This document shows positions 18,233-21,957 of a stretch of DNA of 23,431 nt, one piece after another. Position numbers and translations under genes: made by a program. The notes beneath the pieces were generated by a model, which ran no database searches, was not told where the DNA came from, and saw nothing but the letters and a program-made list of their open reading frames with translations. Source of the DNA: a virus (lineage: Duplodnaviria; Heunggongvirae; Uroviricota; Caudoviricetes). Numbering within the stretch: the stretch's first letter is position 1; each line of letters opens with the position of its first letter. Location: IMG/VR virus record IMGVR_UViG_2671180360_000002. The stretch is one strand, 5' to 3'.

Positions 18233-18468
18233 TAAAACCTCGCCAGTTTAAATCCTGGTTTTCCCCGCCTGCGGCTCACCATCGCGGCAAGCCTGCGTTC
18301 CCACTCCTGACGTCCGGCGCGGATCTGAGAAAGGCTTTCCAGCGTCAGTTGCTGTCCGTTGAAGGTGACAGACTTCCCCTCCAGTACGGCCATTTCCGCT
18401 TCACGGTACCGCTGTATCATTTCTCTGGCTTCTTCTGTGCTCACAACCAGCCTCCTGATGTTATCCAT
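18232..18468 (-). CDS. W: Head-tail joining protein W-like
   Basis: A 78-aa ORF, MDNIRRLVVSTEEAREMIQRYREAEMAVLEGKSVTFNGQQLTLESL...RRRGKPGFKLARF, resembling lambda gpW in pattern and C-terminus as recalled. It sits between the large terminase and portal genes as in lambda. Confidence 0.8.
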   Translation of the reverse strand: MDNIRRLVVSTEEAREMIQRYREAEMAVLEGKSVTFNGQQLTLESLSQIRAGRQEWERRLAAMVSRRRGKPGFKLARF

Positions 18469-20564
18469 GGATTATCTTCCGCACGCTCCGTCCGCAGTTT
18501 TTTCTTCCGGCGACGGCGTTTTTCTGCCCCGGCCGTCAGTTCCGGGGATACCGTTTCACCAGAACGCTCCTGCGGGAAGACGAGCCACGTTTCCCGCTGT
18601 GCCCAGTCCGGTGCGGAGGGCCAGCGGATCTTTTCGTAACCATGCAGAACGGCAAGCGCATCCGCATAAACCAGCAGGTCAAACGCCTCGTTAGCTCCCC
18701 TGCCCGGTTTTCGCCATTTTCCGTCACTGCCGCGCTCTTCATAGGTCAGCTCATCGTAAAACCATCGCCCCAGCCAGTCGGGAAAGTGGATATAGTTCGG
18801 CCCTGGTGTGTCACGCCACAGGGCATTATTTACACGGTCCTTAAACGCATCCGTCTGAACCAGCCACAGCGCGACATCGCCACTGGCTCTGGCACGGCGG
18901 GCACTTCTGCCGGTATTATCCGGGAAGGTACGGTTAATCAGCCTGTCACGGCGAAGTCCATCCCCCTTGAACAGAAACACCCTGTTGCCCAGTCCGTCAC
19001 TCCGGCAACGACGCCAGAAACGATAGGCGTTATCTGTCACCCCGGCTTCCCCTCCCGTATCCACCGCCATGGCCATCAGACGCATGCGCACATCCGGATC
19101 AGAAGCCAGCGGCCATGTTTTATGGAACACATCCGTCAGCAACAAATCCCAGTCCTCCGGATATGCCGCCGGATCAACCGGCAGACTTTCACCGTTGGGA
19201 CTGCAGCGCAGTGAATGCCGGATGTTATAGCGATCAACAATCCAGCGTTCCCCCTGCTCTCCGTATCCGGTGATCTGCACAACAAAACGGCGATTTTTAC
19301 CGCCCTGTACGTCAACCGTTGCCTCAATAAAACGCACACCATCCGGCACAGATCGCCGGGGAAACGGCTCGGCACGCTGTTCAAGCAGTTCACTTTTACG
19401 CTGTTCCGTGGCTGAACGGGGCAGATAGGGGCGTCCGATATCGGTGTTCACCACCGCTTTCAGGGTCTCTTCACTGCCGGTTCGCTCATACTCTTCTTCT
19501 GCCGCCAGCAGTTTAAAAATCAGTTGTTCCCAGGTCTGAAACGCCGCAGCCGGCCCCTCCATCCAGAATGACGCAATCCGGGAATTTCGTGGCGTTCCGG
19601 TGATACTGCCGTCCGCCACCGCCCGTTCACCTTCACGAAGCCAGATCCCTTTGTTATTCAGTTCGCGTTTCTGCTCAGGGGCAATCAGCCCGCGACAATG
19701 CGGACACATCAGACGGGCAGCCTGACCGGCAGCCACAAAATCCGGGTTATTCCGGTATCCGGTCATGTTATCCATCACCGGCTGAAAATATTCCCCGCAG
19801 TGCGGACACGGCCAGTACCACCGGCGGCGGTCTCCCCGGTTATACAGTGACAGGATCCCCGTTGTTGGCGGTGCCTCATGTGCGCCGCCACAGCGCCATT
19901 TGGTGTCAGTGATATCCCGCCCCGGCGAACTCTCGACCAGGGTCATCCCCGAGGACATAAAGGTGGTGGTACGCTTTGATGCCAGGGTGAAGGCATCCCC
20001 TTCCCCGTCCACGTTTTCAGGGAAACGGTCATAATCCGTCAGCGCCACACGACGGTAATCCGAAGAAGAAAATACAGTGATCGACGGCCAGCCAATCTTC
20101 AGGAAGGAGCCGTCAAGAAACATTTTATCGTGGACGTTGTTGTCATTACGGGAAGGACTGAGGCGCTTGCTGACCTCCGGACTGTGGCGAAACGTTCTGG
20201 AAAGACGCGTTCTGGAATGCTCACGCGCCTTCGTCTCAGTCATCTGCACCACCAGCATATCCGCCGGATCACAGATGATGCCGTACACAATCCAGCCATC
20301 AATCAGCCCTTCGGTTTTCCCGGTTCGCGCAGGTCCCACAAACACCACCGCGTCATATTCACGGGCTGATAATGTATTAATGGGGTCAATCATATAGGGC
20401 GTCAACGATGACTCCCACGGACCGGAAGTATTGGCTCCCCGTGGTACCCGCATATAACGCCTGATGGCTTCCGCTACTGGTAACCGGCTGGGTGGGCGAA
20501 ACAGCGAGGCCACTTCGCGCCAGATATCGGATGCGCGGCTATGGCTCTCGTTCACCTGATTCAC
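18441..20564 (-). CDS. Terminase large subunit (GpA family)
   Basis: A 707-aa ORF. It starts at GTG 20564-20562, the first start codon after in-frame stops, overlapping the small-subunit stop (ATGTGA). A Walker-A-like motif VFVGPARTGKTE is present. Position after the small terminase gene fits. Confidence 0.9.
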   Translation of the reverse strand: MNQVNESHSRASDIWREVASLFRPPSRLPVAEAIRRYMRVPRGANTSGPWESSLTPYMIDPINTLSAREYDAVVFVGPARTGKTEGLIDGWIVYGIICDPADMLVVQMTETKAREHSRTRLSRTFRHSPEVSKRLSPSRNDNNVHDKMFLDGSFLKIGWPSITVFSSSDYRRVALTDYDRFPENVDGEGDAFTLASKRTTTFMSSGMTLVESSPGRDITDTKWRCGGAHEAPPTTGILSLYNRGDRRRWYWPCPHCGEYFQPVMDNMTGYRNNPDFVAAGQAARLMCPHCRGLIAPEQKRELNNKGIWLREGERAVADGSITGTPRNSRIASFWMEGPAAAFQTWEQLIFKLLAAEEEYERTGSEETLKAVVNTDIGRPYLPRSATEQRKSELLEQRAEPFPRRSVPDGVRFIEATVDVQGGKNRRFVVQITGYGEQGERWIVDRYNIRHSLRCSPNGESLPVDPAAYPEDWDLLLTDVFHKTWPLASDPDVRMRLMAMAVDTGGEAGVTDNAYRFWRRCRSDGLGNRVFLFKGDGLRRDRLINRTFPDNTGRSARRARASGDVALWLVQTDAFKDRVNNALWRDTPGPNYIHFPDWLGRWFYDELTYEERGSDGKWRKPGRGANEAFDLLVYADALAVLHGYEKIRWPSAPDWAQRETWLVFPQERSGETVSPELTAGAEKRRRRKKKLRTERAEDNPWITSGGWL

Positions 20565-21037
20565 ATATCGGCCTCATCACAACAGTCAATGACTGCCTTT
20601 TCCAGTGTATCGCGGATCTCATCAACCACAATCTGTACTTCATTCAGTTGTGATGCGGTCCACCCCCTGTCCCTCTCCAGCCGGTCAGGCCAGGTTTCCA
20701 GTACCTGAACTATCGCTTTCACCACGACAGAAAAGGACCGCCTGACATCACTGACTGGCACAAGCTGAACAGTTTCATGCTGAAATTTAAGACGCTCGCG
20801 CTCGGACTGATACCATGCCTTCCGATCATGTGGGTTCATCTCTTCATCTTCGGAAGCCGGTGGTTTTTCCAGCAACGAAATAATCAAATCCGTCAGGAGA
20901 TACATTTTTTTCTTTTCATTACTGCCTGGTGCAAGAGGAACATCCGCCATTCTGGCGGCAACAGTCTGCCGGTGCAGACCTGAAAGGGCTGCCAGTTGAT
21001 TAATATTTAACTTCATATTTTTCAGCTCGCCGTCCAT
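20561..21037 (-). CDS. Terminase small subunit (Nu1-like, HTH DNA-binding)
   Basis: A 158-aa ORF with ATG at 21037 preceded by GGAGGG and a 6-nt spacer. The N-terminal segment NINQLAALSGLHRQTVAARMA looks like a helix-turn-helix. It lies immediately upstream of the large terminase gene and about 200 bp downstream of the putative cosN. Confidence 0.8.
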   Translation of the reverse strand: MDGELKNMKLNINQLAALSGLHRQTVAARMADVPLAPGSNEKKKMYLLTDLIISLLEKPPASEDEEMNPHDRKAWYQSERERLKFQHETVQLVPVSDVRRSFSVVVKAIVQVLETWPDRLERDRGWTASQLNEVQIVVDEIRDTLEKAVIDCCDEADM

Positions 21038-21039
21038 TC

Positions 21040-21300
21040 ACATCCCTCCACATAAACCGCTGAACAAAAGTGGCTCTTTTTTTGTAAAGAAATGCCGCCA
21101 TATAAAGATGTCGAACAAAAATCAACCACAATCATCATCTTTTTAATGTTAAACACATTAAAAACAACAAGTTATGCTAATGATGATGATGACGATAAAA
21201 TCACAAAAATGCGCCTTTTTCCGCGCCGTCCGCCCCGTGTTCAGGCCCACCCCACCAGGAGGACCCGCAAAAATGATAATGGTTATCATTTTCAATGTAG
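21040..21300 (-). other. Putative cos region (cosN-like G-rich motif, candidate terminase-binding repeats, AT-rich segment)
   Basis: A non-coding region between Rz and the small terminase gene. The minus strand reads ACGGGGCGGACGGCGCGG (plus 21221-21238), whose first nine bases match the lambda cos junction ACGGGGCGG..., about 190-200 bp upstream of the small terminase start, as in lambda. Inverted ATCATCATC / GATGATGAT copies lie at 21131-21139 and 21182-21190. Confidence 0.45.
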
Positions 21301-21489
21301 TCCGGTTTCTTCCACCATCGCACCGGACAGGCGACTATGAGGGGACAACGCCGCGCTCCGTTAACGCGGTAAACCCCGGTGTGTATCGTTTTTGATTATC
21401 CCCGCACACTCGCGCAGAGGAGTCTCCCTGTCGGGCTGCGGTCTCTGTTAATGAGGGAATACAGCGACGATACGGCGCATCAACAAAAC

Positions 21490-21957
21490 TTATTTCAGGC
21501 ACTGAGTACGGATATATTCCTGCGCCCCTTCCAGTTGCTTGTGCATCGTCATCAGCCGCTCTCTGAGGGTGAAATAATCCCGTTCAGCGGTGTCTGCCAG
21601 TCGGGGGCCGGTTGCATTATCCACGCGGGCGGTGCCGGTGGCTTCACGCACGGGACCTGGACAGGTGGCGTTGATACGCAGGCGCTTACGACCAGCGGCA
21701 ACGTCAGCGCGAAGAGTTTCATTTTCAGCTCTCGCATCGGCTAATTCCCTCGAGTATTTTGCATCGAGCGCAGCAACATCACGCTGACGCATCTGCATGT
21801 CAGTAATTGCCGCGTTCGCCAGCTTCAGTTCTCTGACATTTTTGTCGCGCTGGGCTTTGTAGGTAATGGCGTTATCACGGTAATGATTCAGCCCCAGACT
21901 AAGCGCACCACAGGCCACCAGCATGACAATAATCACCACACACAGAACACGGTTCAT
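21490..21957 (-). CDS. Rz: Rz i-spanin
   Basis: From ATG 21957-21955: [68 protein letters not shown]..., a strong match to lambda Rz as recalled. The track ORF extends upstream from a GTG; the ATG is preferred. Confidence 0.93.
21552..21737 (-). CDS. Rz1: Rz1 o-spanin (lipoprotein, embedded in Rz in the +1 frame)
   Basis: The 61-aa translation [61 protein letters not shown] has a lipobox VSAC and a Pro-rich body, matching lambda Rz1 as recalled. It is fully embedded within Rz. Confidence 0.9.

Follow-up and report, generated by a model that had tools for sequence, protein, structure and literature searches.

The perfect palindrome next to the putative cohesive-end site of this lambda-like prophage is, by its sequence, a top-tier Fur box, and represents a new allele of a known family of Fur sites that includes those of nohA, nohB and lambda. 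The box is the outermost conserved element to the left of cos, lying 3-8 nt before cosQ in most enterobacterial lambda-type phages. The best explanation we can offer for it is a high-affinity operator of the two-dimer type, the local copy of the enterobacterial lambda-type box, acting as a transcriptional gate, a reading to which we give an even chance of being right.

The palindrome and its cos neighbourhood

The window, i.e. the whole 23.4-kb stretch of DNA that was analysed, carries a lambda-like prophage on its minus strand, in which an Rz-type endopeptidase gene, 450 bp of non-coding DNA and the genes of the small and large terminase subunits follow one another. The relevant features are, in phage order:

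21490-21957, minus strand: Rz-type endopeptidase (spanin), the last lysis gene, from the ORF list and the annotation of the Stx2_499 region
21293-21305, no strand: mosaic junction, with ...GGAAGAAACCGGA as the last sequence homologous to Stx phages whose packaging module is different
21277-21297, centre 21287, no strand: second, overlapping Fur matrix site of 16.7 bits, 6 bp away on the side facing away from cosQ
21270-21292, no strand: extended perfect palindrome AAAATGATAA-TGG-TTATCATTTT, read from the sequence
21274-21288, centre 21281, no strand: Fur 7-1-7 core TGATAATGGTTATCA (minus strand TGATAACCATTATCA), 1 mismatch, 27.2 bits
21260-21266, minus strand: cosQ-like heptamer GGGTCCT, 7 nt from the 15-bp core on its downstream side in phage sense, identical to lambda 48473-48479
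21224-21235, minus strand: predicted 12-nt cohesive end (cosN) GGGCGGACGGCG, from alignment by eye to GGGCGGCGACCT of lambda/Qin, which stands there between ACG and CG
21100-21200, minus strand: cosB-like region, with inverted ATCATCATC/GATGATGAT repeats around an AT-rich palindrome
20561-21037, minus strand: small terminase subunit of the DUF1441 type (Pfam PF07278, E = 1e-48)
18441-20564, minus strand: large terminase subunit, an ORF annotated as such in the near-identical Stx2_499 region

On the plus strand the palindrome consists of two 10-bp arms, perfectly inverted relative to each other and 3 nt apart, and its core departs from the 7-1-7 consensus TGATAATNATTATCA at a single position (13 of the 14 specified positions agree); in phage orientation the allele is TGATAAC-C-ATTATCA. 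No other site in the window matches the 7-1-7 motif with two mismatches or fewer, the number of chance matches expected at this threshold from dinucleotide-preserving shuffles being 0.01. Fur site clusters with overlapping sites have been described (PMC2189734), and the two sites here overlap at the 6-bp offset of a Fur box, the second scoring 16.7 bits at 6 bp from the centre of the first. Together they make up the classical 19-mer, which in phage orientation (minus strand) reads GAAAATGATAACCATTATC and agrees with GATAATGATAATCATTATC at 17 of 19 positions when counted by hand. The sequence-only reading, which had described a perfect 9-bp inverted repeat matching the Fur 7-1-7 motif at 14 of 15 positions and lying about 35 bp from a G-rich, cosN-like motif, is upheld on all three points: the arms are 1 bp longer each, the core has one mismatch, and 34 nt separate position 21270 from the cohesive end at 21224-21235.

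Scoring with a Fur weight matrix, a check which that reading had itself proposed, used a symmetrised 21-bp matrix built from 12 independent E. coli K-12 sites, none of them prophage-derived (fepD-entS, fepB-entC, ydhY, sufA, ydiE, fhuA, fecI, fhuF, gpmA, ryhB, sodA and cirA), whose K-12 sequences were taken at the coordinates of Chen et al. 2007 (PMC2189734). The scores were:

Window site: 27.2 bits
Overlapping second site, 6 bp to phage-left: 16.7 bits
Training sites, leave-one-out: 17.9-26.9 bits, mean 21.5
Next best site elsewhere in the window: 10.3 bits
Best site among 50 shuffled windows: 12.6 bits

The window palindrome outscores all 12 training sites in their leave-one-out scoring; the same matrix gives 22.6 bits to the lambda/Qin box and 25.7 bits to that of DLP12. 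Its left extension, GCAAA/GAAAA-TGATAA, is present also at the K-12 Fur sites of fhuF, cirA and fepA. Binding of Fe-Fur to the palindrome is predicted with near certainty, and the earlier suggestion of a Fur box is strongly supported both by the matrix score and by positional homology to the published Fur site of nohA.

In phage orientation the layout to the right of the box is ...CTACATTGAAAATGATAACCATTATCATTTTTGC-GGGTCCT-(24 nt)-GGGCGGACGGCG-CGG..., the 24 nt running from the cosQ heptamer to the predicted nick. The predicted cohesive end has CG on either side and shares its bases 1-6 with that of lambda, GGGCGG flanked by CG being the conserved left half of the lambda end; the nick positions follow from this alignment and are likewise predictions. 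The lambda coordinates with which the heptamer is equated, 48473-48479, we take to be those given for cosQ by Wieczorek and Feiss in 2001. The palindrome had been placed where lambda has cosQ, and this was mistaken: a separate GGGTCCT lies between palindrome and cosN at 21260-21266, and lambda carries the same palindrome just outside its own cosQ. We therefore reject the palindrome as a candidate for cosQ.

Between the predicted cosN and terS, ATCATCATC/GATGATGAT repeats at 21131-21142 and 21179-21190 enclose a perfect 10-bp AT-rich palindrome (TTTTTAATGT/ACATTAAAAA, 21140-21164). These cosB-like repeats recur in relatives with the same DUF1441-type TerS, and the CATCATCATC motif that follows cosN is also found in Fels-1, Klebsiella Kp4865-4 and Pasteurella Pmp14. 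The repeats at 21100-21200 are probably the cosB, comprising R sites and a bend site, of the DUF1441-type small terminases. Going downstream, the terS start codon is reached 244 nt after the palindrome centre, in a region 96.9% identical to that of Stx2_499, where the gene is annotated as terminase small subunit; upstream, in the phage sense, the Rz-type gene ends 198 nt before the palindrome.

Homology to Stx phages (VT2-Sakai, locus L255 800-830) spans the Rz gene and about 190 bp beyond it, then stops sharply some 8 nt short of the extended palindrome on its left side, which assigns the box to the cos-side module. Both types of TerS are found with this left flank, box and cosQ (the window compared with sampled locus L019), indicating that exchange has taken place to the right of cosQ as well. 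Within the Stx-phage region VT2-Sakai is annotated with an 86-aa orf48, which starts inside the Rz end and crosses the conserved 190 bp (L255 619-879); its counterpart in the window is a 55-aa, possibly coding GTG ORF on the minus strand (21335-21502).

The same box in lambda, in K-12 and among sampled cos sites

The right end of lambda reads ...GTAGATGATAATCATTATCACTTTAC-GGGTCCT-(23 nt)-end and contains a perfect 7-1-7 box, TGATAATCATTATCA, at 48452-48466, 6 nt before cosQ. Standard cosmid cos fragments presumably bear this box as well. The K-12 prophage Qin is identical to lambda at the box (TGATAAT-C-ATTATCA), which lies there upstream of nohA, and DLP12 has TGATAATTATTATCA upstream of nohD, formerly nohB. 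The box is also present in phi80 (TTGATAATTATTATCATTTGC-GGGTCCT) and in N15 (TCGATAACTATTATCGTTTAC-GGGTCCT), overlapping in the latter the stop codon of gp59.

The two prophage copies have a published record as Fur sites. Among the strong Fur clusters listed by Chen et al. 2007 (PMC2189734) are nohA (22.3 bits, -233) and nohB (25.3 bits), which rank tenth and third, respectively, in the table of that paper. An nohA oligonucleotide was gel-shifted with 150 nM Fur, and nohA was placed among the predicted "potential Fur-controlled promoters" (PMC2189734). As quoted in the same source, the nohA site is also on a fragment from the in vivo Fur-binding selection of Vassinova and Kozyrev. When converted to current coordinates, the published positions of nohA and nohB fall exactly on the palindrome centres, beside GGGTCCT-cosN, in Qin and DLP12. 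Lambda's own cos neighbourhood physically includes a Fur site that ranks among the strongest of E. coli K-12.

The words "cos", "lambda" and "prophage" are absent from Chen et al. 2007 (PMC2189734). The Fur papers that we searched handle the K-12 noh sites as promoter sites of nohA/B, with no reference to cos, lambda or prophages. The work of Stojiljkovic et al. from 1994 is said to be among the studies of the nohA/nohB Fur sites. On the packaging side, the lambda cos literature defines cosQ, cosN, I2 and cosB, and as far as it is searchable a Fur-box element is unnamed there; the Feiss-laboratory cos papers that we searched mention neither Fur nor a palindrome, and a literature search pairing Fur with cos, lambda, Nu1, iron, terminase or prophage returned nothing relevant. 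As far as can be searched, then, the packaging and Fur-regulon literatures do not link the Fur site with cos, and it seems to be undescribed in searchable work that lambda-type phages have a Fur site conserved next to cosQ, that lambda, phi80 and N15 have it, and that it is lacking from the cos sites of satellites (PICIs).

The window site resembles the Qin and DLP12 sites in its motif, in a centre 233-244 nt upstream of the terS homologue and in the 6-7 nt between core and GGGTCCT-cosN. It differs from the Qin site at one base (TGATAAC-C-ATTATCA in place of TGATAAT-C-ATTATCA) and from both in having an unrelated left flank, a DUF1441-type TerS with a different cosB and an apparently intact prophage around it; moreover the noh sites are known Fur binders, whereas binding to the window allele is predicted from sequence. 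With lambda the window shares the order Fur box, cosQ, ~23-24 nt, cosN, but the FNR box and leftward DUF3950 ORF found further left in lambda are both lacking in the window. That a site for a host DNA-binding protein can be conserved inside a cos region is known from the IHF site I1 of lambda cosB. I1, however, is placed between R3 and R2 and has been shown to act in the initiation of packaging, whereas the position of the Fur box is outside cosQ and its part in packaging, if any, is hypothetical.

Conservation was surveyed by an IMG/VR scan that specified only cosQ-N20-27-cosN (GGGTCCT...CGGGGCGG), with no upstream requirement and with chance matches removed; GGGTCCT is thus present in all the 91 distinct lambda-type cos sites sampled by design of the search. 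A box, called as a 7-1-7 motif with at most 3 mismatches out of 14, precedes cosQ in 52 of the 91, at 3-8 nt from the box end (mode 6) and next to unrelated left flanks. Its placement relative to cosN/cosQ is conserved across lambda-type phages, in these 52 sites and in lambda, phi80, N15 and Klebsiella Kp4865-4. Where TerS and TerL are encoded downstream, 36 of 55 cos sites have the box and 19 do not. Over the 34 sequences left by an 80% redundancy filter, information content is about 0 bits leftward, rises steeply over (t)GCAAaTGATAATnATTATCATTT and drops in the short gap before cosQ. The box is constantly upstream of the terminase genes and in the same orientation, and it precedes two TerS families, Phage_Nu1 and the DUF1441 type of the window, which have no BLAST similarity to each other. 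About two thirds of the lambda-type phages in the sample thus keep the box by purifying selection, across unrelated flanks and both TerS families.

Taxonomic breadth was assessed by tblastn searches with TerS among named phages. A degenerate box beside a variant cosQ, AGGTACTCC, is present in Salmonella Fels-1 and Pasteurella Pmp14, and no box was found in Gifsy-2 or in the Vibrio, Aliivibrio and Aeromonas relatives. A scan of genome contigs for GGGTCCT-N19-26-ACGGGGCGG gave chance matches only, in GC-rich genomes. In Fels-1 (L257), Gifsy-2 (L258) and Pmp14 (L260), at ~370-460, AGGTACTCC replaces the GGGTCCTCC of the others at an unchanged distance from cosN, a natural variation of cosQ; among the phages compared in the N15 paper, cosQ variation "is not apparent". 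In one class of phage cos sites (L012, L014, L018, L029, L077 and L090) a CDS reaches to 1 nt before cosQ (...GTTCGTCAYGGYTGTCAGGCTGAC, then GGGTCCT), which leaves no room for a Fur box.

The cos sites of satellites form a separate group. None of the 11 satellite-like cos sites has a Fur box. PICI sites of the cos1 type stand before an RppA-like 144-aa gene, often two to a contig, and a GC-rich terminator ends 2-3 nt before their cosQ. This terminator (EcCICFT073-type) resembles the box in its position, 2-3 nt before GGGTCCT, and in being a dyad followed by a T-run; it differs in having a GC-rich stem whose sequence varies from locus to locus, whereas the AT-rich Fur box keeps its sequence and shows no covariation. 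The satellite loci themselves (L005, L020, L025, L033, L065, L074, L083, L095, L099, L103 and L123) often have two or three cos per contig, in either orientation, each with a GC hairpin and T-run followed by the 144-aa RppA-like HTH protein, a 93-aa phrog_1561 protein (function unknown) or a DUF1441 TerS-like protein, and none encodes TerL.

A proposed effect on transcription past the box

From the observed sequence, position and conservation of the box, and from the published binding of Fur to its lambda/Qin allele, we infer the effect of occupancy as follows. In an iron-replete cell Fe-Fur would occupy the box, and iron starvation would leave it free. Bound at the entrance to cos-terS-terL, Fur would repress or block sigma-70 transcription arriving from the left without Q antitermination, and would in this way keep terminase silent in the iron-replete lysogen; during lytic growth Q-modified late transcription would override the block. 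The box itself would be unnecessary for cos cleavage or for termination of packaging.

Several observations favour such a gate. The nohA transcription start implied by Grainger's FNR position of -85.5 maps, by our own arithmetic, inside the box of Qin; the homologous K-12 site has been classed, by prediction, as a Fur-controlled promoter site (PMC2189734); and the box lies upstream of terminase genes of the same orientation, while the terminase-free satellites have a terminator instead. Others count against it. Between 21000 and 21560 a scan found no sigma-70-like promoter on either strand, inspection of both strands by eye gave no convincing -35/-10 pair in the window, and the left flank, where a promoter would be expected, is not conserved. 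Promoter fusions of nohA/B were weak. The box is ~240 nt from terS with the entire cos between them, it is kept at 3-8 nt from cosQ despite the hundreds of non-coding bases available upstream in lambda and in the window, and the left flank, box and cosQ are common to both TerS types (the window and L019). Such tight spacing suggests that the box is tied to cos and not so much to any gene. In addition, about 35% of phage cos sites do without the box. The iron-responsive operator proposed in the sequence-only reading stands as plausible, with the reservation that no promoter-like element was detected in the window.

If the gate reading is correct, prophage behaviour is tied to iron limitation, a cue of host infection, and the cue is relevant here in that the close relatives of this prophage are Stx-converting phages.

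Possible packaging and other roles

The alternative that survives best, which we nevertheless regard as unlikely, is that the box is an accessory element of packaging, Fur bound 3-8 bp before cosQ acting on the terminase, as this translocates, like a speed bump or a bend and giving an iron-dependent gain in termination at cosQ. The coupling to cosQ is tight (gap of 3-8 nt, mode 6, over 52 sites with unrelated left flanks), the box moves with the cos module at the mosaic junction, and the two TerS families that have it share cosQ and cosN. The motor would meet box, cosQ and cosN in that order, so that a bound protein could act as a brake. Wieczorek, Didion and Feiss reportedly found in 2002 that cosQ mutations are suppressed by changes that slow translocation, which would speak for such a role, while in the mutational definition of cosQ a 7-bp segment alone is said to be critical, which would speak against it. 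A fixed stereospecific contact does not sit well with a gap that ranges over half a helical turn.

Further evidence against a packaging role comes from cos sites without the element and from a host-factor screen. PICI cos sites of the cos1 type are packaged by the lambda and phi80 terminases although they have no box, 19 of 55 phage cos sites are likewise without one, and fur is unmentioned in the main text of the paper on the lambda host-dependency screen of the Keio collection, in which ihfA and ihfB are hits. Since box-free PICI cos sites are packaged and fur goes unreported in the main text of that paper, the box is probably not an essential subsite of cos. The evidence for this is indirect, namely the 11/11 satellite-like and 19/55 phage sites without a box, together with the silence on fur in the main text of the Keio paper, and on the same grounds (PICI cos1, about a third of phage cos, the Keio paper) the site for cos processing suggested by the sequence-only reading is disfavoured. 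The satellite and screen data weaken the idea of a packaging aid, but there may still be a modest effect. Were it real, a textbook machine would gain a host factor.

A related view, to which we attach somewhat less credence, makes Fur itself a hitherto unrecognised host accessory factor of lambda-type packaging: holo-Fur, sitting a few bp ahead of cosQ, would slow or position the incoming terminase motor, or would protect or mark the right end, which is injected first. On this reading termination efficiency, and hence phage yield, would be tuned by the iron status of the host.

It is improbable that the box has no function of its own and is conserved as an island because it acts as a recombination linker at the boundary of lysis and packaging genes, or hitch-hikes with cosQ. 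The mosaic junction some 8 nt left of the extended palindrome would fit a linker, as would the fact that box and flank recur unchanged beside differing cosQ-cosN spacers and TerS types. Conservation, however, tracks the Fur matrix position by position, down to the free central base, and the gap between box and cosQ is itself variable in sequence; neither a linker nor a hitch-hiker would keep the optimal site of a host regulator exactly across unrelated flanks.

Quite improbable too is an operator for a leftward moron promoter, expressed in the lysogen and diverging from cos. In lambda, Qin and DLP12 a leftward DUF3950 gene (an unannotated 64-aa ORF in lambda, ynfO and ylcI in the prophages) does start ~150-200 nt left of the box, with an FNR box between the gene and the Fur box. 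The nearest upstream gene, however, reads rightward, with the late operon, both in the window and at most of the 34 diverse loci, and its end is 0-300 nt from the box; the window has only Rz upstream. As a general role the leftward-moron operator is rejected, the DUF3950 gene being confined to the lambda/Qin/DLP12 group. In the lambda segment 47500-48502 (L001) the unannotated leftward ORF occupies 610-804 on the minus strand (DUF3950, E = 1.9e-20) and is homologous to K-12 ynfO and ylcI, and a perfect FNR box, TTGATgcagATCAA, lies at 865-878, ~41 bp upstream of a GACAAT -10-like hexamer facing the ORF. FNR binding to the Qin and DLP12 copies has been published, with the target gene left open in that work; the lambda FNR box and GACAAT would fit a class II FNR promoter.

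Highly improbable, finally, is a chance likeness to Fur in a site for another protein (terminase, IHF or a phage factor) or in a nucleic-acid hairpin acting as a weak terminator or processing site: a T-run does follow the dyad, its position is that of the PICI intrinsic terminator and the phi80 record names the whole interval "cosQ; aka R4 region", but Fur binding to the lambda/Qin allele is published (PMC2189734), the RNA hairpin reaches only -7.3 kcal/mol (z-score -2.05) with 2 G-C pairs, compared with -15.3 kcal/mol for the PICI terminator, and a terminator scan does not call the palindrome. Across the 34 sequences the dyad positions are pairable in 83.3% of cases, which equals the shuffled mean (265 of 500 shuffles are at least as high), and only 3 cells show a change on both sides. 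A Rho-independent terminator or RNA hairpin is rejected on the weak stem, the missing scan call and a covariation no different from that of shuffled sequences. The lack of base-pair covariation points to a protein site and not a hairpin, and since the sequences of both half-sites are under selection the protein should be dimeric, the central base being free as expected of a 7-1-7 dimer site. The protein known to bind the box sequence is Fur.
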